Positions 712-32,245 of a stretch of 35,465 bases of DNA are shown here, piece after piece. The notes below the pieces were generated by a model, which saw only the letters and a program-made list of their open reading frames with translations, made no database searches and was not told where the DNA came from. Made by a program: the position numbers and the translations under genes. The stretch comes from a virus (taxonomy: Duplodnaviria > Heunggongvirae > Uroviricota > Caudoviricetes): IMG/VR virus record IMGVR_UViG_2534681764_000015; one strand, given 5' to 3'. Within the stretch, counting starts at the first letter, position 1; every line of letters starts with the position of its first letter.

Positions 712-1654
712 ATTGGCAGTAAGAAAAGTTAGTACCGTACATTTCATCATGAAGCATTGCAACATTGCGTTTCTGTTCTTCTTCCTCGTCTACCGCATCA
801 CTAGAAAAATGAGATTTGCCCTTAAAAGAACGAAGCAATTGCAGTGCAGCCATCGGATCACGCATCACATCGATTTTCACTTCTACTTCATCATTTGCGG
901 CCTCATCAGCCGCATTTTCAACTACTGCCACCGGAGCAACTTCTTTAGCTTTCAGTTCTTCAATCTCAGCTTTCTGTGCTTCGATGATCTGGTCTTTTTC
1001 TTCCAGCGCAGCTTTCAGTTCTGCGATCTGTGCTTCCAGTGCAGAGAAACGATCTTCAACAGCAACCGGAGAAACAGCATTAACCTGTGCTTCCAGTTCT
1101 ACGAAAGCGTCGCAAGATTCAATACGTGCTTTTTCTTCACCTTCATATGCAACCAGTTCTACTACTTCTTTCTCAGTAGTGTGGCTGTTAAAGAATACAG
1201 CAAAGTAAGGATTGCCGGATTTGGTGAAGTTCAGTTTAGCTTTTCCGGTAACTTCTTTACGACGACCAAAGGTAATGTTGCAATCAGCGGTATCCTGAAA
1301 ATCCATGTTAGGAGCGGAAACGATAGCAGTATCACCAGCAATCACTAGGTGGAACAGTTCAGAAGAGTTCTTAACGGTGAAAGTAACGATGTGGTCTACT
1401 GCAACGTCTTTAGCAGGTTTAACGCGGTCGATTGCTTTACGAATGCCGTTAGGCAGTTTACCGTCAACACCAAAGCCAGCCGCGATCAGTGCTTCACGAT
1501 GTGCTTTAAAGCCAGCGAAAGCGGATTTCTGCTGCGCAAAGGAAACATGAGCAACAACTTTCGGCTGAATCTTCTTGTTTGCTTCGGTGCCAAATTTGAT
1601 AACTGCTTTAGCGTTGGTTACTTCGTTAGTGAAAAAGTTAGCGGAAAATAACAT
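710..1654 (-). CDS. hypothetical protein with central coiled coil and acidic C-terminal tail (314 aa)
   Basis: long ORF with AGGAG 8 nt upstream of ATG; heptad-like segment ALEAQIAELKAALEEKDQIIEAQKAEIEELKAK; function not recognised. Confidence 0.6.
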   Translation of the reverse strand: MLFSANFFTNEVTNAKAVIKFGTEANKKIQPKVVAHVSFAQQKSAFAGFKAHREALIAAGFGVDGKLPNGIRKAIDRVKPAKDVAVDHIVTFTVKNSSELFHLVIAGDTAIVSAPNMDFQDTADCNITFGRRKEVTGKAKLNFTKSGNPYFAVFFNSHTTEKEVVELVAYEGEEKARIESCDAFVELEAQVNAVSPVAVEDRFSALEAQIAELKAALEEKDQIIEAQKAEIEELKAKEVAPVAVVENAADEAANDEVEVKIDVMRDPMAALQLLRSFKGKSHFSSDAVDEEEEQKRNVAMLHDEMYGTNFSYCQ

Positions 1655-1696
1655 TATAAATACTCCTGTAGAAAGTTAGTTTTAATTGTTCATTTC

Positions 1697-1740
1697 AAGC
1701 CTCCTTTGCTGCAACAAGGGAGGCTTTTTCTTTTTTTAAA
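1697..1740 (+). terminator. rho-independent terminator candidate (plus-strand polarity)
   Basis: hairpin AAGCCTCC...GGAGGCTT with extended stem followed by TTTTTCTTTTTTT. Confidence 0.5.
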
Positions 1741-1769
1741 GCCATCATATAATTCTCAGTGAAAGTGGA

Positions 1770-1949
1770 TTAACAAACTTGAACGTTAATCTTTACCTGA
1801 ATTTCGTATTTCTTCATTAGCTTGTAGAATCCGCTTCTATCAATTCCTTCCTTCTTAAAGAAGTTTTCCCCGCCTCGCTCAGTGTCGCTGTAAAAGCGTT
1901 TAGCAATATCAACAATCATTTCACGAGTGAACTTAACAGGTCTAGCCAT
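1770..1949 (-). CDS. small putative DNA-binding protein, GRP/ARP-motif family (59 aa)
   Basis: ATG at 1949 with GAGGAA 9 nt upstream (ORF track starts at GTG 1964); N-terminal ARPVKFTREMIVDIAKRFY and C-terminal GFYKLMKKYEI motifs shared with 5376..5609. Confidence 0.5.
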   Translation of the reverse strand: MARPVKFTREMIVDIAKRFYSDTERGGENFFKKEGIDRSGFYKLMKKYEIQVKINVQVC

Positions 1950-2048
1950 CAGTCGATTCCTCACATGTGGATTAATAATTTCTTAAAAAAGAGCATTTCG
2001 CTCTGAACACTTGTATTTATAAAATGATTTTCAGAAAACCCTGTAAAA

Positions 2049-2070
2049 CCACTGTATATCCGATCAGTGG
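2049..2070. promoter_or_regulatory. 22-bp palindrome CCACTGTATATCCGATCAGTGG, SOS-box-like operator candidate
   Basis: CTGT-N8-TCAG core, one mismatch from LexA CTGT-N8-ACAG; perfect 6-bp dyad arms. Confidence 0.4.
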
Positions 2071-2133
2071 GAGCACGAATTGCTAAAGAGAAGATTAATT
2101 ATTAATCAATTCGTACAATATTCAACCGAAAAA

Positions 2134-2155
2134 GCACTGTATATCTAACCAGTGC
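2134..2155. promoter_or_regulatory. 22-bp palindrome GCACTGTATATCTAACCAGTGC, second SOS-box-like operator candidate
   Basis: shares ACTGTATATC with first box; outer arm base changed compensatorily so dyad symmetry is kept. Confidence 0.4.
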
Positions 2156-2306
2156 TGTATGAATTAGCAGTGAATCAGGAGATTTTCAGAAGTGAACAAT
2201 CATTTCACACATGTATTTATAACGTGGAAATTCTTGCTTATCATCTATATGGGGACTGTTTAGAAAATTTCAACCCCCACCAGTGAGAAAAAGTATAAAA
2301 TAATCC

Positions 2307-2320
2307 TTGACAGTTGTCAA
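2307..2320. promoter_or_regulatory. palindrome TTGACAGTTGTCAA (operator or -35 candidate)
   Basis: perfect inverted repeat of TTGACA hexamer; related palindrome at 3829..3848. Confidence 0.3.
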
Positions 2321-2516
2321 TACACTTGACCTAAGCGAGAAATGACTATCAAAATTTTTGTTTGAAAATGGTAGATCAGGATTATCAACCTTTATAACCT
2401 ATTATAGCACGGAGACCTTTTGACAATTCTTTTTAAATCATTAACTTACGCCACTTTTTGGTGATTTTTTGATTAAATAATATACAAGAATTTTCTATCA
2501 AAATATTTGATGGGAA

Positions 2517-2711
2517 TTGCCCCTGAAATTCTGAATTTTGCCCCCGAACCAAAATACCCAAGATTCCACTATCCCATTTTTGCCCCTGAAACCCACTATT
2601 TTTGCCCCTGAAATTCTGGGAAACAGTGATTTTGCCCCTCATTTTTGCCCCTGAAATGCCAATAATTGCCCCTGAAAATCTAATTTTTGCCCCTGAAATT
2701 TGCCCCCGAAA
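2517..2711 (+). repeat. array of nine direct iterons, consensus TTTTGCCCCTGAAA
   Basis: copies starting 2517, 2538, 2580, 2602, 2632, 2645, 2666, 2687, 2700; spacings mostly 21 bp multiples; no ORF. Confidence 0.7.
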
Positions 2712-2844
2712 AGGATTGGTAAGAAAAACTCTTTATAAAACATTAACTTAGTGAGGGGTAAAACGGGGAATCGGGCGTGCATAGATATTATATAACACAT
2801 TCGCTACGCTCATGTGTAAAACCAAAAATAACCAAAAAGATATT

Positions 2845-2864
2845 AGGAGGGCTTTGCCCGACTG
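2845..2864 (+). repeat. left copy of 20-bp direct repeat AGGAGGGCTTTGCCCGACTG
   Basis: 19/20 identical to copy at 3238..3257. Confidence 0.6.
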
Positions 2865-2974
2865 CGCGTAGCGCTAACCAATTACTTCTAGTAACAACTA
2901 ATTTAAACTAGATGATACTAGATGGTCTTAGAAGGAATTAACTAGTTTGCTCGCTCGCTTCGCTCACTCTCAAA

Positions 2975-2997
2975 CGTCTGCGACGCCACTGCGTGGC
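2975..2997. promoter_or_regulatory. GC-rich twin palindrome CGTCTGCGACG / GCCACTGCGTGGC
   Basis: two abutting perfect palindromes in an otherwise AT-rich non-coding region; candidate protein-recognition or cleavage site. Confidence 0.3.
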
Positions 2998-3237
2998 ATC
3001 GAGAATCACTTTTGAAAGGATTTTCTTAGAAAGGGATTTTAATACTAGATGATAACTGATTCTAGTAAACGAACGAAGTGAGTAACAATCACTTTCTAGA
3101 AAGGTATTGGTTATCCCTTCGGGATCGCAACCTGCGGTTGCTGAAATTGCTTCCTGATTATTCTTTCTTCGAAAGAAAGATTCTTATATTCTAAAGATAC
3201 TTCTTCGTTTTGATGATGATTTAATCAAAATCTATGA

Positions 3238-3257
3238 AGGAGGGCTATGCCCGACTG
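3238..3257 (+). repeat. right copy of 20-bp direct repeat AGGAGGGCTATGCCCGACTG
   Basis: 19/20 identical to copy at 2845..2864; lies about 90 bp upstream of gene 3348. Confidence 0.6.
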
Positions 3258-3347
3258 AATACCAATCCCTTCCAAATAGATAAAAAATTCTCGTTATAAA
3301 TACTAGTGTAATTTGTTTGATTCACTTTCTTTTAGAGGATTTCCACT

Positions 3348-3806
3348 ATGAACCACAAGATGACTACCACTACTCCTTTTATCCTTCTGGGTCTGGATTC
3401 TGATAGCTTCCACAATGACAAGTTAATGAAGATGTTCCGTGAACGTGGTTATAACATCCTTTTCAACTCTGATGAATCCCATTTCTCTAGTGCATGGTAT
3501 GCGTTTTGCCGTAATAAGAAGCCGACCATTGTTGTTAACGTCTTCACCGATGAAGAACGCTTAAAGTACCAGAATCTACCAGCAATTATTGTTCGTGATG
3601 ATCTGCCGTTTCAAGTCCGTTCCGGTGACATTGACCTGGGTAGCTTCTTGACTCTTCGTGAACTGGATGAAGCAATGTTTAATTACGGTAAAGAAACCGC
3701 TCAGGAAGCCCCAGAACAAGATGAGGAAGACGAAGACTACGCACCAATCGCTTTCTCTTCTCACGGTGGCTTCTACGGTTACGATGAAGGCTTAGATATG
3801 CTGTAA
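3348..3806 (+). CDS. hypothetical early protein with acidic C-terminal tail (152 aa)
   Basis: ORF with AGAGGA RBS; C-terminal EAPEQDEEDEDYAPIAF; first gene after the 1.4-kb non-coding region. Confidence 0.6.
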   Translation: MNHKMTTTTPFILLGLDSDSFHNDKLMKMFRERGYNILFNSDESHFSSAWYAFCRNKKPTIVVNVFTDEERLKYQNLPAIIVRDDLPFQVRSGDIDLGSFLTLRELDEAMFNYGKETAQEAPEQDEEDEDYAPIAFSSHGGFYGYDEGLDML

Positions 3807-5216: not shown

Positions 5217-5375
5217 TATCTGTAGATGCGCTGAACTTTAAGCGCATCCCTCCAGATTTGGATGCATCTATAGATCAGTCCAGATTTGGACTCAACTTAG
5301 AAATGAGCGCAGTTTTGCGCCGATTGTTTTACATACAAAAAAGCCACTCCGAAGAGTGGCAAAGAGAATCAAAAC

Positions 5376-5609
5376 TCAAAAACCTGTTGCTTCTACGATC
5401 TGACCATCACCGATCTGAACATAGAATTTAATGTCCAACTTCTTCATATTCTTATAGAATTGGGCGATTGAGATCCCATGTTCACTAAGAATCTGTTCTT
5501 TCGCTTCCTTACCACGATCCGCTGTATAATAAGCGTAGGCAATATCAGCCATCTGTTCAGCGTTAAAACGGGCAGGGCGACCGCGAGTAGCTTTAGTAGT
5601 CATAGTCAT
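5376..5609 (-). CDS. small putative DNA-binding protein, GRP-motif family (77 aa)
   Basis: ATG at 5609 with GGAGA upstream (track start 5636 is GTG); TRGRPARFNAEQMADIAYAYY and FYKNMKKLDI motifs paralogous to 1770..1949. Confidence 0.5.
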   Translation of the reverse strand: MTMTTKATRGRPARFNAEQMADIAYAYYTADRGKEAKEQILSEHGISIAQFYKNMKKLDIKFYVQIGDGQIVEATGF

Positions 5610-5638: not shown

Positions 5639-6244
5639 TTATTTAGAGGACTTACATTTTATCGGAAAAAGTTCTCCATCGTCAACCGACATAAAGAACT
5701 CTGCCTTAATCCCGTACTTCTTCAACCGTGAATAATATGTACCCCGACTAATATCAACCTTGCGCAGCACTTCGAAGAACTCTTTAGGATTCCTGTAATA
5801 GTGGCTATATCGCACGTTAGCGAGTTCTACAAACAATTCCCTTGAATCACCATAGCCTTTCTTAAAAGCCACATTACGATAGCGTGTAATGGCATGATTC
5901 AATCTCTTCTGTTTAAGCACTTCCCTAATCGGTGTCCACTGCAACCGATAGATAGGACCGTCATCTACTCGATAGAATCGCTTAATGTCAAAATCAAACC
6001 ATTCACGAACTCTATTAAACTCTGTCTGTGATGTACGATGCTTCTTAAAGAAGTTATGAATATCGGTATACCCATGATCGCGATACAACTCGATTAAAAT
6101 CTGTTTAGCTTCCTCACGACTAAAGCCAGATGTTGTGTAATCAGTCTTCTTGTGATGGTGCTTAACTGGCAAACGATATTCATGATCGGTACAACAAGAA
6201 AAGGCTAATTCTAATGCATCTCTTTGTTGCTGATTAATTAGCAT
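5639..6244 (-). CDS. hypothetical protein with C-terminal HTH-like motif (201 aa)
   Basis: ORF divergent from terminase; C-terminal ISRGTYYSRLKKYGI resembles the C-terminal motif of the two small GRP-family proteins. Confidence 0.55.
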   Translation of the reverse strand: MLINQQQRDALELAFSCCTDHEYRLPVKHHHKKTDYTTSGFSREEAKQILIELYRDHGYTDIHNFFKKHRTSQTEFNRVREWFDFDIKRFYRVDDGPIYRLQWTPIREVLKQKRLNHAITRYRNVAFKKGYGDSRELFVELANVRYSHYYRNPKEFFEVLRKVDISRGTYYSRLKKYGIKAEFFMSVDDGELFPIKCKSSK

Positions 6245-14187: not shown

Positions 14188-17100
14188 ATGCAATCAATCC
14201 AATTTAAACGAACTAATGTTTCTGGCAAAAAGCCAACGCCGGAACAATTACAGGTCGGTGAGGTAGCAATCAACCTTAAAGACCATGTTATTTTTACCAA
14301 AGACCGAGATCATGAAGTAGTTCAAATCTCTGTTTCTCCTGAAACTCACGCGGCACTAGAATCTAAAGTTGATGCTAACAAACAAGAATTGGATAGCACA
14401 ATTGCAGTAAATGACCGCAATATTCACGCTAAAGTAGATGAAATTAAACAAACTACTGATGCAACCATCGCAGCAAATCACGCAGAAATTAACAATAAAG
14501 TTGATGTAATTAAACGCGAAACCGACGCGACAATCGAGGCCAATAAAAATAAAGCTGCTTCCGATCTTGCTGGTGTTAAAGCTGAATTGTCGGATACCAT
14601 CAACGCTAATAAAAATGCGGCTGCTGTAGCAACTCAGGAACTGGACACCCGCATCAATAAAAAAGTTGATGATATTAAATCCCGTACCGATGCAACCATC
14701 GTAAGCAATCACAAAGCAATCAATGACAAAGTTGATTTGATTAAGGCAGAAACTGACCGCACTATCGCAGCAAATCACGCCTATGCGGAAAATCAGTTAA
14801 CTGACACCTACAATAACCTTACTGGTGTGATTGCAGCCAATAAGCAAGAGGCAGCGGATAACGTCGCAGCATTAACCCGTGATGTTGAAGCCAAAAATAC
14901 AGCAATTCATAGCAAAGTTGACAATAACAAGTCTTACACTGATTCTGAATTGGCACGCTTAGAAAGCCGTATTGATGCAGCCGATGGATCAAGTGATGGT
15001 AAGTACATCAAAAAGCACGTAAACACTTGCACTGATGGCTATTTGCTGTCTAAGACCGCAAACCCTTTTGATGATCCGAGTGCTCTTAATCTTGATTACT
15101 TTGGTGCATTTCGCATGAATGACCTGGCGGGTCATATTGCAATGATCTTGCATGTTCCGCACCCATCCGGCGTTAATCATGCTCGTGGTTTTGAGTTCAC
15201 TTATGGGTCTAATCCGGTTCCTACGGTAAGAACATACGGCTATGATGAATTGGGACATTTGGCATATTCTCACCGCATGTATCATGAAGGTGATAAACCT
15301 ACTCCGGCTGAAATTGGCGCATATTCGAAAGCAGAAATTGACCGACTGTTCCAGAAGACGCTTAATTTTGGTATCGAGGGTGGTTGGTTTAAACTAGGCA
15401 CTTTGACAATGCCACAACAACACGGTCGCACGGCTAAGATCCGTTTGGTTGGTGGTAACGGTTATAACGTCGGGATGAATGGACAAGCCAATATTATCGA
15501 ATTGGTGATCCGATGCGGCAACAATAGCCCGAAAGGTGTTGTATTCAATGCGTATTATACTATTTGGCATCATGAACAACATTTTTGCGCTATTCCAACC
15601 GATGGCGACAATTACGATCTTTACGCTTACTACGGTGCACATACAGGATTTGTTTTAGCAGAATATCAAGTTTCTTCCGGTGGTGTTTCTTTAAACCTGT
15701 TGGATACTCCTGAATATCTGGGTGGTGAAAAACCTGTTGCAGACGAAATTTTTGATGCTCTTAACATTTCATCGTTCAATAACTTTAGCAACCGTGGAAC
15801 GTTAAATTTTGCTGGAAACCATCAAGGCCAATACGACATTGAGCATTTGAACGAACAGCAAACAAATGCCAAGAAAATGTTGCGTCGCTTCCGTAGTTCT
15901 GCTCCTGCCACTATCTGGCATGAGACAGTTGATGATAACGCATATCGTCTTGCTACTGGATACGAAGATACAAATCAGGAATTATTGCTGACAGTAACAT
16001 CCGGGTTACATGTCAAGAAATTAACATTGGATGGTGGTGTTGGTGGAAATTCTGGTATTGATATTCGTCGAGGACCAAACGAAGCAAGCCATTTTAATTT
16101 CATGGATTATCGCACTGGACAAGATGTTCGTAATGGTTGGTTTGGTTTTGGTGATGGAACAACCAAAGATTTTATTTGGTGGAACGACAACGGTCAAAAC
16201 TCTATAAACCTGATTGCAGATGGTGAATTACATATTTCTGGCGGTAAAGGCCAGAAAATTGTAATGAATAGCGAAGTTGCATTATCTGAAAATGCTCGTT
16301 TGGCTGTTAAAGGTGGCAATTATGGTTTGATTTTACGCAATGATGGTTCTAGCTTCCATATTCTTACTACCGATTTAAAAGATTCTTTTGGTAGTTGGAA
16401 TAATCGCAGACCATTCAGCTATGATTTTGCGGACGGTGGATTGTATTTAGGTGGTACTGCAACCGCTCGTTGTTTGCATCTCGGAATTGATGGTAGTACC
16501 CGTCTTGAAGACAACCTTTTCTTTAAAGCTGGTTCTCGTCAATCTATGGACTATATGGAACTCGTCCATTGGGGTGCAAGCAATACAGGTCGAAATAACG
16601 TTTTAAGTCTTCGTGACTCAAAAGGATTTTTCGCAGAATTTGAACGATTGGGTGATAATACCATTAAAAACACCTTCTTCGGGAAACTTAAAGTTAATCG
16701 TGGTTCTGACGCAATCGTCATGAATGCCGAAACGGGTGATTCGTCTATATATTTGCTGGGTACTTGTGCTGATAATAACAACTGGTATATCGGTAAAGGT
16801 GGTGCTGATAATGGATTAGCGTTCTATAGCTATGCTACTAATGCTGCTATCAATATTACAAACGCGGGTGATATCGCGCTAAGTCCAAAAGGTGTCGAAA
16901 TGACTCATGTCAATAACGTTCGATTCTATGTTCATGGTGAACGTTGGACTGCTAGCCAATCTGGAGGTTGGGGCGATCAATGGGGATTAGAAGCGCCGAT
17001 ATTTGTCGATCATGGTTATGTAGGACCAGATAGCTATTATCCAATTATTAAAGGAAGAAGTTTAATCACCAATCAAGGGTATACAACTGCCGTCGATTTT

Positions 17101-17598
17101 GGTATGCGTCGTGTTCCTCAAAATTGGGGGCAAGCTATTATTCGTGTTGGATCTGCGGAGGCATCGCCAGCGGCTGGTCATCCTCAAGCGGTGTTTGAAT
17201 TTCATCATGATGGTACTTTCTATTCTCCTGGTAATGGTAACTTTAACGATGTTTATATTCGTTCCGATGGTCGTCTGAAAATTAATGTTGAAGATTACGA
17301 AGAAAATGCGGTGGATAAGGTAAATAAACTCAAAGTTAAAACCTACGATAAAGTTAAATCTCTTAATGACCGAGAAGTTATAGGTCATGAGATTGGTATT
17401 ATCGCACAGGATTTACAAGAGGTATTACCGGAAGCTGTTAAAACCGCAAAAATTGGTGGTCTTGATAACCCAGAAGAAATTTTAACAATTTCAAACTCCG
17501 CAGTGAACGCGCTTTTAATTAAAGCGGTCCAAGAAATGAGCGAAGAAAATAAACTTCTTCGTGAACGTCTTGCTGCAATTGAAGCTAAATTAGGGTAA
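14188..17598 (+). CDS. long tail fiber with C-terminal intramolecular chaperone (peptidase S74-like) domain (1136 aa)
   Basis: N-terminal MQSIQFKRTNVSGKKPTPEQLQVGEVAINLKD fiber-anchor-like motif; 24-aa coiled-coil repeats; C-terminal SDGRLK...HEIGIIAQDLQEVLPE...LLRERLAAIEAKLG resembles the self-cleaving chaperone of T5 pb1 and endosialidases. Confidence 0.8.
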   Translation: MQSIQFKRTNVSGKKPTPEQLQVGEVAINLKDHVIFTKDRDHEVVQISVSPETHAALESKVDANKQELDSTIAVNDRNIHAKVDEIKQTTDATIAANHAEINNKVDVIKRETDATIEANKNKAASDLAGVKAELSDTINANKNAAAVATQELDTRINKKVDDIKSRTDATIVSNHKAINDKVDLIKAETDRTIAANHAYAENQLTDTYNNLTGVIAANKQEAADNVAALTRDVEAKNTAIHSKVDNNKSYTDSELARLESRIDAADGSSDGKYIKKHVNTCTDGYLLSKTANPFDDPSALNLDYFGAFRMNDLAGHIAMILHVPHPSGVNHARGFEFTYGSNPVPTVRTYGYDELGHLAYSHRMYHEGDKPTPAEIGAYSKAEIDRLFQKTLNFGIEGGWFKLGTLTMPQQHGRTAKIRLVGGNGYNVGMNGQANIIELVIRCGNNSPKGVVFNAYYTIWHHEQHFCAIPTDGDNYDLYAYYGAHTGFVLAEYQVSSGGVSLNLLDTPEYLGGEKPVADEIFDALNISSFNNFSNRGTLNFAGNHQGQYDIEHLNEQQTNAKKMLRRFRSSAPATIWHETVDDNAYRLATGYEDTNQELLLTVTSGLHVKKLTLDGGVGGNSGIDIRRGPNEASHFNFMDYRTGQDVRNGWFGFGDGTTKDFIWWNDNGQNSINLIADGELHISGGKGQKIVMNSEVALSENARLAVKGGNYGLILRNDGSSFHILTTDLKDSFGSWNNRRPFSYDFADGGLYLGGTATARCLHLGIDGSTRLEDNLFFKAGSRQSMDYMELVHWGASNTGRNNVLSLRDSKGFFAEFERLGDNTIKNTFFGKLKVNRGSDAIVMNAETGDSSIYLLGTCADNNNWYIGKGGADNGLAFYSYATNAAINITNAGDIALSPKGVEMTHVNNVRFYVHGERWTASQSGGWGDQWGLEAPIFVDHGYVGPDSYYPIIKGRSLITNQGYTTAVDFGMRRVPQNWGQAIIRVGSAEASPAAGHPQAVFEFHHDGTFYSPGNGNFNDVYIRSDGRLKINVEDYEENAVDKVNKLKVKTYDKVKSLNDREVIGHEIGIIAQDLQEVLPEAVKTAKIGGLDNPEEILTISNSAVNALLIKAVQEMSEENKLLRERLAAIEAKLG
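14356..14800 (+). repeat. in-frame tandem repeats (about 72 nt / 24 aa) inside tail fiber gene
   Basis: at least five KVDxIKxxTDATIxANHxxIN units. Confidence 0.6.
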
Positions 17599-17636
17599 TT
17601 GGAAAGCGGGGAGAAATCTCCGCTAAGGATTCTTAT

Positions 17637-29443: not shown

Positions 29444-30481
29444 ATGGAGATTTTATTTGCTGAATATATCAACTACACCGGATTTACAAGAAAAACGCCT
29501 CTTGACTATGAACCTATTGCCATTAAACGTTGTGATGAGTTGGGGTACATCTATAACGGTTTTGTTGTGCCGTGGAAAGGGCAACATACACCCGTTTCTA
29601 TAACCTGCAAGAAACATAGCACAACGCGAACAATTGCTTTCAAAACTCTTAAAAAACAAGGTGCGTGTCTTGAATGCTATAAAGAATCATTAAAACTTCC
29701 TAAGAAAAAGAATAGAGATAAGGAAGCTGTATTAGATAAAGCAAGCAATGTGCTGGAACGCAAAGATATGGTTTTAGTTGGATTGTTAGAAGATTATAAA
29801 GGATTAGACACAAAAGTTTCTTATAAGTGCAATTGCTGTGATACTGCATACGAAACCATAATCACTAGAATCATAAACGATGATGCTGGGTGTCGTCATT
29901 GTGGGTCAATTAAGAGAGGAATCAATAAGAGAAAACACACAGACGACGAATGGATGGATCTAATTGAGCATGAATGCAGGAACAAACGACTTGAATTAAT
30001 AGAACAACCTAAATCTCCTATATTGTCAACATCAAAAATACACATCAAATGTGAAAAAGGTCATCTTTCTGATTCTTTGGTAGTTTATGGTTTAGTGTAT
30101 GAAAACTTAGGCTGTCCATGTTGTTCTAAAAATGGTTATAACAGAAGTAAGTCGGGAGTTTTCTACGTTCAACAGGTCGGAGATTATATAAAATATGGAA
30201 TAACAAACCATCTAAACCCACAAAAGCGAGTAACTCAACAAGCTAGGGAATCAGGGTTAAAACACAAGTTATTGTGGTATATAACGTTCGGTGACGGAAA
30301 AGTTGCCAATGACCTAGAGTATTCCGTAAAACATAACATAGGAAATCACGCTGCACCAAAAGAACTAATCCCAGACGGATATACAGAAACATGTGACATA
30401 ACCAAAGAAGCGCAGATTAGAAAAATGGCAATGGATTTTTGTAAAAACTCCAACAACTATAAAATTACATATAGGGGGTAA
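29444..30481 (+). CDS. Cys-rich protein with C-terminal GIY-YIG / T5orf172-like motif, paralog 1 (345 aa)
   Basis: three CxxC-type pairs (CKKH...CLEC, CNCC...CRHCG, CEKGH...CPCC) then GVFYVQQVGDYIKYGIT...RV; homologous to 31247..32245. Confidence 0.6.
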   Translation: MEILFAEYINYTGFTRKTPLDYEPIAIKRCDELGYIYNGFVVPWKGQHTPVSITCKKHSTTRTIAFKTLKKQGACLECYKESLKLPKKKNRDKEAVLDKASNVLERKDMVLVGLLEDYKGLDTKVSYKCNCCDTAYETIITRIINDDAGCRHCGSIKRGINKRKHTDDEWMDLIEHECRNKRLELIEQPKSPILSTSKIHIKCEKGHLSDSLVVYGLVYENLGCPCCSKNGYNRSKSGVFYVQQVGDYIKYGITNHLNPQKRVTQQARESGLKHKLLWYITFGDGKVANDLEYSVKHNIGNHAAPKELIPDGYTETCDITKEAQIRKMAMDFCKNSNNYKITYRG

Positions 30482-30482
30482 T

Positions 30483-30836
30483 ATGTTAAGTAAGCATTTT
30501 TCTCGCAAGGAATTTAAATGTAAATGCGGAAAATGTGATTATGATACAATCGACGCTGAATTACTGGTAATTCTTGAGGATGTACGAGAGCACTTCGGGA
30601 AGCCAGTAATTATTAACAGTGGGAACCGTTGCCCGACTCATAACAAGAATGTAGGCGGGGCAGCCAATAGCTATCACGTTCGAGGCCGCGCGGCTGACAT
30701 TGTTATCAAGGGTGTCTCGCCTGATATTGTTCATGCTTATCTTGATGGGAAATATCCTACTCAATACGGCTTAGGAAAATATAAAACCTTTACGCATATT
30801 GATTCCAGATCAAAAAAATCACGGTGGAATGGATAA
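30483..30836 (+). CDS. endolysin, peptidase M15 (L-alanyl-D-glutamate peptidase / VanY-like) family (117 aa)
   Basis: zinc-site motifs SYHVRGRAADI and FTHIDSR, small size like T5-type endolysins. Confidence 0.75.
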   Translation: MLSKHFSRKEFKCKCGKCDYDTIDAELLVILEDVREHFGKPVIINSGNRCPTHNKNVGGAANSYHVRGRAADIVIKGVSPDIVHAYLDGKYPTQYGLGKYKTFTHIDSRSKKSRWNG

Positions 30837-30840
30837 AACA

Positions 30841-30867
30841 AAAGCGCCTCTGGTGGGCGCTTTTTTG
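30841..30867 (+). terminator. rho-independent terminator
   Basis: hairpin AAGCGCC...GGCGCTT followed by TTTTTTG immediately after endolysin stop. Confidence 0.65.
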
Positions 30868-30981
30868 TTAGAATATGCTGGCGACGTTAGCTATATTTCT
30901 GACCATTTTTTCATTATAGACAAATATACCGCAGATGATAAAGTGGTATTCGACGAAGTTGATCCGTCTCTGGTTGAAGCA

Positions 30982-31200
30982 ATGAAAGAACCTGAGATCG
31001 TCATTGAAGAAACAAAAGAAGAATCTCCAGCAGTTGAACCAGTGGTCGAAGAAGTTAAGTCAGATGTTGAAGAAGCACCGGAAGTTAAAGTAGAATCTCC
31101 GGTAGCCAACATTTTCTCGGACGAAGCAGAGCATCGTTCTCCTGCACATGACACTGATTCATTTTGCGATCTTACTGGTTTCCAAAACTACAATAATTAA
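30982..31200 (+). CDS. acidic hypothetical protein (72 aa), doubtful
   Basis: ORF track 30799..31200 spans the terminator hairpin; first ATG after it is 30982; no clear RBS. Confidence 0.2.
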   Translation: MKEPEIVIEETKEESPAVEPVVEEVKSDVEEAPEVKVESPVANIFSDEAEHRSPAHDTDSFCDLTGFQNYNN

Positions 31201-31246: not shown

Positions 31247-32245
31247 ATGAATACTACTTTAGCAAAGGATATCGAATTTACCGCAAAAAGCAAACGTGCG
31301 ACCCCTCCGGTCGAATATGAAACCAGAATCATTAAAGTTTGTCAAGTGCATGGATGGTTATACAGTGGTTTTGTGCTTCCTGTAAAGAAACCATTCCAGA
31401 ACACCAAAGTTTGCATAGAAGTTAACGGAAAGGTTAAAACGCCATGTATTAGTCATGTTCTAACTGGTCAGTTTACTGGCAAAGATAGAGTATCACCGCC
31501 TAAGAAGGAGTTTAGATTTACCGAAGAAGAACACTTAGAAAACGCTCGCAAGTTCTACAAGCCGATAGGGTGGGATGTGTTAGGTCTGGCTGAACCTTAT
31601 CAGGGTGTTGACACTAAACTAATTCTTCGTTGTAAGTGCCACGGAAAGATTCACAAGAAAGGTGATTTACACAATAACCGCAGACAAGGCGGGTTAACAT
31701 GCCCTTTGGTTAGGGGGGTACTTAAATCAATTCAGAATGGTAGAAAACAGGTTATCAGAAACAAGTTTGCACAGCGCCCTATGCACTTTTATCTAATTCG
31801 TGTTGGCGAGAAGTTTTTCAAATATGGAATTACCACTCGCAAAGATCCGATGCAACGGGTAAGAGAACACCAGAAGCACACCAGCGAGAAAATCACCTTT
31901 GAATGCTCACATTTGTTTAACATTGGATGGAAAGCTGGTGATTTAGAAATGGGGATTAAAAAGAATATTCAGGGCAAGAAAATCCCACGTAAGGTAATGA
32001 ATAGCGGATTCACAGAAACGCTACCGATTAGCAAGCTGAAAGATGTTAAATCATTCATCAATGAATACATCCACACCAACCCATCTAAGCCAATGTATTT
32101 TGATGATACCAACGCAATCAATCTGAACAACTACATTAGTGATGAAGACATAGAACGAGATTTATCGCAGTGGATGAATGCACCGTTAGCTGATTTAACA
32201 CCGGAAGACTTAGAACTCGATTTAAGCCCTTTAGAGGCTCTTTAA
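31247..32245 (+). CDS. GIY-YIG / T5orf172-like motif protein, paralog 2, Cys-depleted (332 aa)
   Basis: aligns with 29444..30481 at EYETRIIKVC...GFVLP, YQGVDTK, FYLIRVGEKFFKYGIT...QRV, GFTET. Confidence 0.6.
   Translation: MNTTLAKDIEFTAKSKRATPPVEYETRIIKVCQVHGWLYSGFVLPVKKPFQNTKVCIEVNGKVKTPCISHVLTGQFTGKDRVSPPKKEFRFTEEEHLENARKFYKPIGWDVLGLAEPYQGVDTKLILRCKCHGKIHKKGDLHNNRRQGGLTCPLVRGVLKSIQNGRKQVIRNKFAQRPMHFYLIRVGEKFFKYGITTRKDPMQRVREHQKHTSEKITFECSHLFNIGWKAGDLEMGIKKNIQGKKIPRKVMNSGFTETLPISKLKDVKSFINEYIHTNPSKPMYFDDTNAINLNNYISDEDIERDLSQWMNAPLADLTPEDLELDLSPLEAL

Follow-up and report, generated by a model that had tools for sequence, protein, structure and literature searches.

A gp37-type, S74-chaperoned tail fiber in a siphovirus-type Escherichia coli prophage, with three small predicted jelly-roll proteins in the gp38 position

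Introduction

The virus record IMGVR_UViG_2534681764_000015 (35,465 nucleotides (nt); the whole stretch is called the window here) carries an intact open reading frame (ORF) at 14188-17598 (+) that encodes a tail fiber of 1136 amino acids (aa). An initial annotation, made from the sequence, described a fiber with a repetitive N-terminal shaft and a self-cleaving C-terminal chaperone like those of T5 pb1 and the endosialidases. What kind of fiber is this, how is it held on the tail, and does its own tip or a separate protein bind the receptor? Our answer is that the locus encodes a gp37-type, S74-chaperoned fiber of a siphovirus-type prophage, with a predicted coiled-coil spacer, a putative anchor on the tail and a proposed cap encoded in the gp38 slot. 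We give this reading as a whole a probability of about 80%, with its parts graded separately below.

The fiber is a gp37 homolog from connector to C-terminus

The fiber matched PHROG 1699 ('long tail fiber distal subunit') at E=1e-126, which bears out its identification as a tail fiber. By BLASTP, residues 280-1125 aligned with residues 66-905 of gp37 from the Krischvirus MIZ4 at 82% aa identity over 846 residues, and residues 1-51 aligned with residues 4-54 of the same protein (41% identity, E=7e-10). This near-full-length alignment means that the gene encodes a complete gp37 with about 225 extra residues, a coiled coil, inserted after the N-terminal connector. The DNA matched Krischvirus gp37 from nt 864 of the gene on, with 82.7% identity to MIZ4 and 96.3% identity to gp37 of KFS-EC over nt 1597-3411, to the stop codon. 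Judged by these alignments, the fiber is a gp37 homolog from end to end, of the T2/S16/Krischvirus class, a feature that the initial annotation had overlooked.

The N-terminal connector also matched PHROG 35830 and 17885. It is identical in the E. coli loci L001-L004 and closely kept in other relatives. The gp37 proteins of other, distant Straboviridae matched residues 1-165 (also through PHROG 35830), which indicates that a similar N-terminal rod is not restricted to the prophage. The shaft gave PDB matches to T4 gp34 and Mu S, and tip residues 865-1025 were kept across cassette types. NCBIfam returned no match for the fiber, for the 277-aa protein encoded upstream or for the small ORFs downstream.

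The C-terminal chaperone is predicted to release itself after residue 1025

The Pfam family PF13884 (Peptidase_S74) matched residues 1026-1085 over profile positions 1-58 of 58, at E=4.3e-14 and with 53 bits against a cutoff of 22. This agrees with the initial annotation, which had proposed an S74-type intramolecular chaperone starting at the SDGRLK motif and had named the lack of an S74 profile hit as a refuting outcome; that check is passed. Its Ser codon at 17263 (TCC) was confirmed as residue 1026, in the context DVYIR-SDGRLK. The chaperone comprises the last 111 residues; it contains HEIGIIAQDLQEVLPE and a helix-like C-terminal segment, and this terminal segment, ISNSAVNALLIKAVQEMSEENKLLRERLAAIEAKLG, looks helical by sequence. 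Ser1026 and Lys1031 form the conserved Ser/Lys+5 pair and were invariant in every homolog alignment (A1, A5, A6). Together with Asp1027, Arg1029 and Leu1030, they stayed unchanged among fibers whose identity over the last ~335 residues is otherwise 44-99%.

Among solved structures, the C-terminus of S16 gp37 (6F45) was nearest to the chaperone, with E=1e-4 for the single sequence and 4e-8 for a profile built from nine of these domains. The same profile search of the PDB returned MYRF (7dc3, E=5e-4) and a phage fiber (8jov, E=1e-3). The link from the fiber to pb1 and endoNF runs through the Pfam family only. Thus, the kinship with T5 pb1 and the endosialidases first suggested for this domain stands as shared S74 family membership but not as closest relationship, since T-even gp37 is nearer.

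The SDGRLK serine aligns with the SDRRIK motif of S16 gp37, which is cleaved at DLNVS^SDRRIKK (PMC7917993). The junction DVYIR|SDGRLKI of the window is identical to that of the Yersinia T4-like phages fPS-2/-65/-90, whose gp37 was predicted to be cleaved after DVYIR (DVYIR^SDGRLKI), opening the gp38 docking site (PMC7917993). Ser1026 and Lys1031 also correspond to Ser1264 and Lys1269 of T5 pb1, where the scissile serine is activated by the lysine and departs with the chaperone (PMC4690869). Autocleavage at R1025|S1026 is well supported by homology. From the S16 site, the Yersinia junction and the invariant Ser/Lys pair, a mature fiber ending at residue 1025 is the expected outcome, as the initial annotation had predicted. 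In this respect the fiber is an ordinary member of the known S74-chaperoned gp37 class on an unusual chassis, with a cleavage junction that has been published before.

The N-terminal repeats form an unbroken hendecad register

The shaft had been described as 24-residue tandem repeats over residues 57-205, expandable by recombination. The tandem repeats are real, but their period is 22 aa and their extent greater. Copies lie 66 nt apart in the DNA, and protein self-similarity was maximal at an offset of 22 (z=9.3 against 300 shuffles) and showed harmonics at 11, 33, 44, 55 and 77; the consensus first given was itself about 22 residues long. When residues 57-265 are set out in rows of 11, they make 19 hendecads in succession, free of indels, with hydrophobic residues at positions 1, 5 and 8. 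Hydrophobic periodicity was 3.67 (z=11.5) with no 3.5 (heptad) signal, and proline is absent from the whole region. The 22-residue repeat is a super-period of this register, with about four clean and three degenerate 22-mers in the rod. The 11/22-mer periodicity also accounts for a weak Pfam Apolipoprotein match. From the periodicity we read residues 57-265 as a trimeric alpha-helical hendecad coiled coil of ~31 nm, probably a rigid spacer.

In eight of ten related fibers, Salmonella ones included, the rod counts exactly 19 hendecads, and the two most divergent differ in length by +5 and -12 aa. Tandem Repeats Finder reported nothing on the fiber gene, so the repeat is discernible at the protein level only. 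Because the DNA copies, 65-71% alike, are too diverged to recombine and rod length is conserved, expansion of the shaft by recombination was not borne out. Krischvirus gp37 has no such 209-residue coiled coil. Asn and Ile alternate in successive repeats at core position 8 of the hendecads (14356-14982); Asn layers in the trimeric coiled-coil cores of bacterial adhesins are known to bind anions.

The triplet and gp38 occupy an equivalent gene slot

Directly downstream of the fiber gene, in the position that gp38 takes in T-even phages, the window carries three ORFs of ~100 aa (a, b and c). The same slot holds this triplet in L001 and in nine IMG/VR prophage loci. In L002, the fiber is 92% identical to that of the window and is followed by a true gp38 (Pfam GP38 4e-72, Gp38_N 1e-19). 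No accessory gene is present in the slot of L003 and L004, whose tips read DVQIR and DVHIR, with Q or H for Y1023. Among lytic Krischvirus phages, the gp38 position is taken by gp38 (MIZ4), by the same triplet at 97% identity (G37-3) or by a single a/c hybrid ORF (KFS-EC). No gp38 is present in the window, and none was found in the 98.6% of the G37-3 genome searched, where the positive control worked; the stretch outside that search (150001-152346) is filled by the gp34 and gp35 genes. By gene order, gp38 and the triplet occupy an equivalent slot.

Several loci record changes in this slot. In L002, a 50-aa remnant of ORF c lies directly behind gp38 (5771-5923), indicating that gp38 replaced the triplet in that lineage. 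In KFS-EC (L006; 4855-5178 and 5111-5284), the slot contains one 107-aa ORF whose first 94 residues are ORF a and whose tail resembles the middle of ORF c; it has the look of paralogs joined by a deletion, or of a collapsed assembly. No displaced gp38 of KFS-EC was seen among the 60 listed of 815 matching records; a displaced gp38 has reportedly been described in RB49. In the IMG/VR prophage L014, ORF b is shortened to 73 aa (5300-5521) with a and c intact, possibly a decay of the triplet in a resident prophage. The more distant sister prophages L011 (6559-7065) and L012 (10141-10647) have a 168-aa gp38-like gene after the tail tube gene and not after the fiber; its product has a gp38-like N-terminal attachment region (PGWVGSS...GQRWMS) and no glycine-rich domain. 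A strict link between intramolecular chaperone (IMC) subtype and accessory gene set was rejected, since the IMC start differs in L020 and the triplet is still present.

The triplet is a small family with a predicted jelly-roll fold

ORFs a, b and c are translationally coupled paralogs, only 25-39% identical to one another. In all 15 loci that carry the triplet they come after an S74 fiber and are arranged a-b-c; these fibers are 954-1176 aa long and carry at least three unrelated tip domains, all ending NDVYIR|SD.RLK. The same arrangement after an S74 fiber was found in Salmonella prophages (25-35% identity) and in distant metagenomic contigs with other tip strands. At 90% identity the family falls into 35 clusters, and 19 representatives out of 1.8 billion belong to it; none is annotated. 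No Pfam, PHROG or NCBIfam model covers the family, with Pfam, including GP38 and Gp38_N, blank at E<=1 for a, b and c. A description of the triplet was not found in the literature on BASEL, Gp38 or C1q/adhesins. A scan of species-representative genomes gave a single match of 20 residues in a Bryobacteraceae metagenome-assembled genome, rejected as spurious. Giant proteins from an exhaustive profile search were likewise discarded as ankyrin, NHL or other repeat proteins.

The AlphaFold model of ORF a (predicted local distance difference test score 83) consists of an N-terminal helix and a jelly-roll sandwich. In Foldseek, its top hits were C1q/TNF proteins, and it also matched C-terminal domains of phage tail fibers. 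This suggests that the small ORFs have a C1q/TNF-like jelly-roll fold. Trp4 was invariant in 32 enterobacterial sequences. The idea that it mimics the three Trp prongs of gp38 was weakened, as Trp4 is not kept in distant homologs. Between the fiber stop and ORF a lies a 38-nt spacer (17599-17636) with a short hairpin (AGCGGGGAG-AAAT-CTCCGCT) just 5' of an AAGGA ribosome-binding site. The hairpin has no T-run, is conserved with phage G37-3 and could affect how the triplet is translated.

A tube paralog with a gp36-like end probably anchors the fiber

The window is an E. coli chromosomal prophage whose backbone has relatives in 55 of 5426 complete E. coli genomes and is known from such chromosomal prophages of E. 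coli only. It carries siphovirus-type genes for a terminase, portal, protease-capsid fusion, tube protein and tape measure, and no sequenced phage has a capsid more than 44% identical to its own. Megablast found no match to phage records or plasmids for the 14 kb upstream of the fiber, and T-even-like DNA is limited to ~15051 to ~18559. The fiber cassette lies between a gene for a 277-aa protein and the canonical tube gene, which forms its downstream edge. The window has no gp34, gp35 or gp36 genes, and the sole trace of gp36 is a 28-aa C-terminus on the 277-aa protein, a tube paralog.

In T4, the N-terminus of gp37 has gp36 as its partner. Over its last 28 residues, the 277-aa protein was 46% identical to the last 28 of Krischvirus gp36 (E=3e-5). 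This motif is kept throughout the 277-aa family, and two longer homologs insert extra gp36-style repeats before it. The 277-aa gene together with the first ~65 fiber residues is the part of the cassette conserved in all E. coli relatives (at the DNA level, in the 55 genomes). We infer that the 277-aa protein probably anchors the fiber to the tail. The coordinates of these genes and of the fiber domains are given in Table 1.

Table 1. Features of the fiber locus in the window and the basis for each assignment
Feature	Coordinates	Strand	Basis
Putative fiber anchor, 277 aa	13281..14114	+	Tail-tube fold in N-terminal half; gp36-like extreme C-terminus
Tail fiber gene, gp37-type distal long-tail-fiber homolog	14188..17598	+	ORF, PHROG 1699, MIZ4 aa identity, KFS-EC DNA identity
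N-terminal connector domain, residues 1-56	14188..14355	+	Homologous to gp37 N-terminus
Predicted hendecad coiled-coil rod, residues 57-265	14356..14982	+	19 x 11 residues, 22-residue super-repeat
gp37 shaft and tip, residues 280-1025	15025..17262	+	BLASTP to MIZ4 gp37 residues 66-905; final strand NDVYIR
Gp34_trimer-like domain, residues 644-745	16117-16422	+	Pfam PF21446, E=7.9e-14
Predicted autocleavage site and catalytic pair, R1025|S1026 with Lys1031 (SDGRLK)	17263..17280	+	Codon, alignments, S16 and T5 precedent
C-terminal intramolecular chaperone (Peptidase_S74), residues 1026-1136, with helix-like terminal segment	17263..17598	+	Pfam PF13884
Small ORF a, 98 aa	17637..17933	+	Predicted C1q/TNF-like jelly roll, gp38 slot
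Small ORF b, 101 aa	17936..18241	+	Paralog of a, coupled by TAA-TT-ATG; alignments, junction sequence
Small ORF c, 100 aa	18241..18543	+	Paralog of a and b, stop/start overlap TAATG; alignments, junction sequence
Canonical tail tube protein, 156 aa	18598..19068	+	PHROG 158, E=3e-20; weak Pfam matches to lambda tail tube protein; RefSeq annotation in relatives

Proposed assembly of the tip and alternative explanations

In the gp37 class, the cleaved tip is normally a docking platform for a separate adhesin and not the receptor-binding end, a point that the initial annotation had also overlooked. One such adhesin is gp38, a monomer that uses three Trp to dock in three equivalent pockets in the base of gp37 (PMC6851490). 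We propose that the fiber of the window is assembled along similar lines. Three C-terminal chaperone domains would nucleate trimerisation and folding of the beta-structured tip. In the correct trimer, Ser1026, activated by Lys1031, would cut R1025|S1026, and departure of the chaperone would expose the NDVYIR strands as a flat triangular platform. An adhesin would dock there as in S16 and T2, this adhesin being gp38 in the sister prophages and MIZ4. In the window, the paralogs a, b and c would instead make up the cap that binds the receptor, perhaps as one a-b-c heterotrimer. At the other end, the fiber N-terminus would probably plug onto the tail-tube paralog with its gp36-like C-terminal motif. 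The cap or adhesin role is proposed from the gene slot, the linkage to the fiber, the coupling of the three genes and their predicted fold. Its most specific form, in which the triplet is an undescribed tip adhesin that sits as an a-b-c heterotrimer on the NDVYIR platform in place of gp38 and is exchanged between lytic T-even phages and prophages, is put forward tentatively. If this is true, the heterotrimer would turn the 1:3 symmetry mismatch of gp38 into a 3:3 match, and lytic T-even phages (G37-3, G2248) would exchange the triplet module with temperate siphovirus-type prophages of E. coli and Salmonella.

Several observations weigh against the overall reading. L003 and L004 have the same tip class without an accessory gene, which means that fibers of this type can do without a cap, and the lytic phage KFS-EC retains only the a/c hybrid ORF, with most of the triplet gone. 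Trp4 of the small ORFs varies in distant homologs. The gp36-like match of the 277-aa protein covers just 28 residues and includes the common KPTPAE fiber motif. On the side of the chaperone, phmmer and profile searches of the PDB (E<=1-10) did not recover the endoNF and T5 pb1 chains, and the oxyanion/sensor Arg of the K1F/T5 mechanism, whose placement calls for a trimer model, was not located. Cleavage of this fiber, or of near-identical ones, is a prediction from homology.

The small ORFs might alternatively be folding or assembly factors, or have some other accessory function, riding with the 3' end of gp37, with the gp37 tip itself binding the receptor. For small ORFs that follow g37, Trojet et al. 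considered 'specialised LTF chaperones' (LTF, long tail fiber) as one possibility, the triplet is fairly well kept in the E. coli loci and not hypervariable, and IMC subtype co-varies with the accessory gene set, as physical linkage alone would give. This explanation is possible, but the fiber already has its own intramolecular chaperone, and the predicted C1q/TNF-like jelly roll is a usual fold of binding heads, with matches among the C-terminal domains of phage fibers. The triplet also accompanies at least three unrelated tips that share only the terminal NDVYIR strand, which suits docking better than domain-specific folding help, and it sits in the exact gp38 slot in a phage in which no gp38 was found (G37-3).

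If the triplet does form a cap, each paralog could instead trimerise with itself. The fiber population would then be mixed, with three alternative caps and three specificities. C1q/TNF-family members are mostly homotrimers, and the low identity among the paralogs is compatible with distinct specificities. We consider this possible but somewhat less likely than a heterotrimer, because the three ortholog groups stay together, coupled and in fixed order, even at 25-35% identity, more like obligate co-subunits.

A fiber of the T5 pb1/endosialidase kind, whose own tip ending at residue 1025 binds the receptor without a separate adhesin and whose shaft length changes by recombination, appears unlikely. 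The S74 domain is common to pb1 and the endosialidases, and the accessory-free loci L003 and L004 and the loss of most of the triplet in KFS-EC are in line with such a fiber. Against this, the 82%-identical gp37 of MIZ4 and the 92%-identical prophage fiber of L002 precede a gp38 adhesin, and the accessory-free fibers differ at the tip, with Q or H at the position of Y1023. There is no detectable sequence similarity to the pb1 or endoNF chains, and the coiled coil is conserved in length with DNA repeats just 65-71% alike.

Finally, that the C-terminal domain is a degenerate S74 relic that aids folding without cleaving, so that the virion fiber keeps all 1136 residues, is compatible with a cleavage predicted from homology alone but highly improbable, given the invariant Ser1026, Asp1027, Arg1029, Leu1030 and Lys1031, the match to all 58 S74 profile positions, and the fact that a retained chaperone would block the docking face that gp38 uses in sister loci.

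Exchange between lytic phages and prophages

The modules shared by T-even phages and the prophage are 96-97% identical in DNA. On this sequence evidence, lytic T-even phages and a temperate siphovirus-type prophage lineage share modules directly and recently. Such sharing bears on host-range prediction, and on the prospect of therapeutic T-even phages gaining specificities from prophages. If the triplet is an adhesin, receptor prediction from gp37 and gp38 would miss it; phage G37-3 offers a simple experimental handle. The tube paralog with its gp36-like end and the coiled-coil spacer represent a natural way to put a T-even distal fiber on a non-contractile tail, a design that could serve fiber engineering. 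Most worth following are the three-gene family in the gp38 slot and the upstream tube/gp36 hybrid, both of which lie just outside the coordinates of the initial annotation.

A further piece of T-even-like sequence was observed at 30926-31183, within an ORF at 30799-31200. It comes from the interior of the Krischvirus gene for the 'inhibitor of prohead protease' (inh), is 258 bp long and has 98-99% identity. The fragment is flanked by paralogous ORFs at 29444-30481 and 31247-32245 (345 and 332 aa), in which a T5orf172/GIY-YIG-like '...YGIT...' motif was read by eye. In some sister prophages, the fiber cassette itself includes a GIY-YIG nuclease gene. The exchange between T-even phages and prophages may be carried by mobile nuclease genes. 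Between the upstream nuclease-like gene and the inh fragment lies a 117-aa ORF (30483-30836) that by eye resembles peptidase M15/YcbK-like cell-wall peptidases (SYHVRGRAADI).

Comparison with known systems

The nearest known system is gp37 of the T2/S16/Krischvirus class (MIZ4, KFS-EC, G37-3, fPS-2/-65/-90, and S16 6F45). It is homologous from connector to C-terminus and has the same junction, chaperone and downstream gene slot. The window fiber differs in belonging to a siphovirus-type prophage without gp34, gp35 and gp36, rather than to a four-protein myovirus fiber, and in having the 209-residue hendecad coiled coil between connector and shaft. In addition, a tube-fold protein with a gp36-like C-terminus is encoded ahead of it, and three C1q/TNF-like genes of ~100 aa come after it in place of gp38.

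The S74 domains of endosialidase K1F (3GW6), T5 pb1 (4UW8) and the GA-1/phi29 appendages belong to the same Pfam family. They share the C-terminal site and the Ser and Lys(+5), and end in a helix where the window fiber has a helix-like segment; the same role is expected, trimer folding followed by self-release. The chaperone of the window, at 111 aa, is shorter than the 133 aa of pb1, and the preceding fiber domains are unrelated. With the L-shaped fiber of T5 pb1 only the S74 family is shared, as no homology to its fiber body or 'bullet' domain was found by phmmer and profile searches of the PDB.

The gp38 of T2, T6 and S16 has the same position after gp37 and the same expected docking tip as the triplet, and the two are interchangeable in sister prophages and Krischvirus. 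Gp38, a monomer of 260 aa, combines a polyglycine sandwich with three Trp prongs and has no sequence similarity to the triplet, which consists of three ~100-aa predicted jelly-roll proteins, each with one N-terminal helix. Compared with C1q/TNF heads (C1q A/B/C, collagen VIII NC1, BclA and phage fiber knobs), which are of ~130 aa, the small ORFs are shorter and free-standing, with no collagen or fiber stalk. Lastly, the 277-aa protein can be compared with appendage-bearing tube paralogs such as SPP1 gp17.1* and the Sf11 'neck whiskers protein' gp24 (9occ). In contrast to these, its extension ends in a gp36-like connector motif, and it is proposed to hold a separate fiber of 1136 aa.

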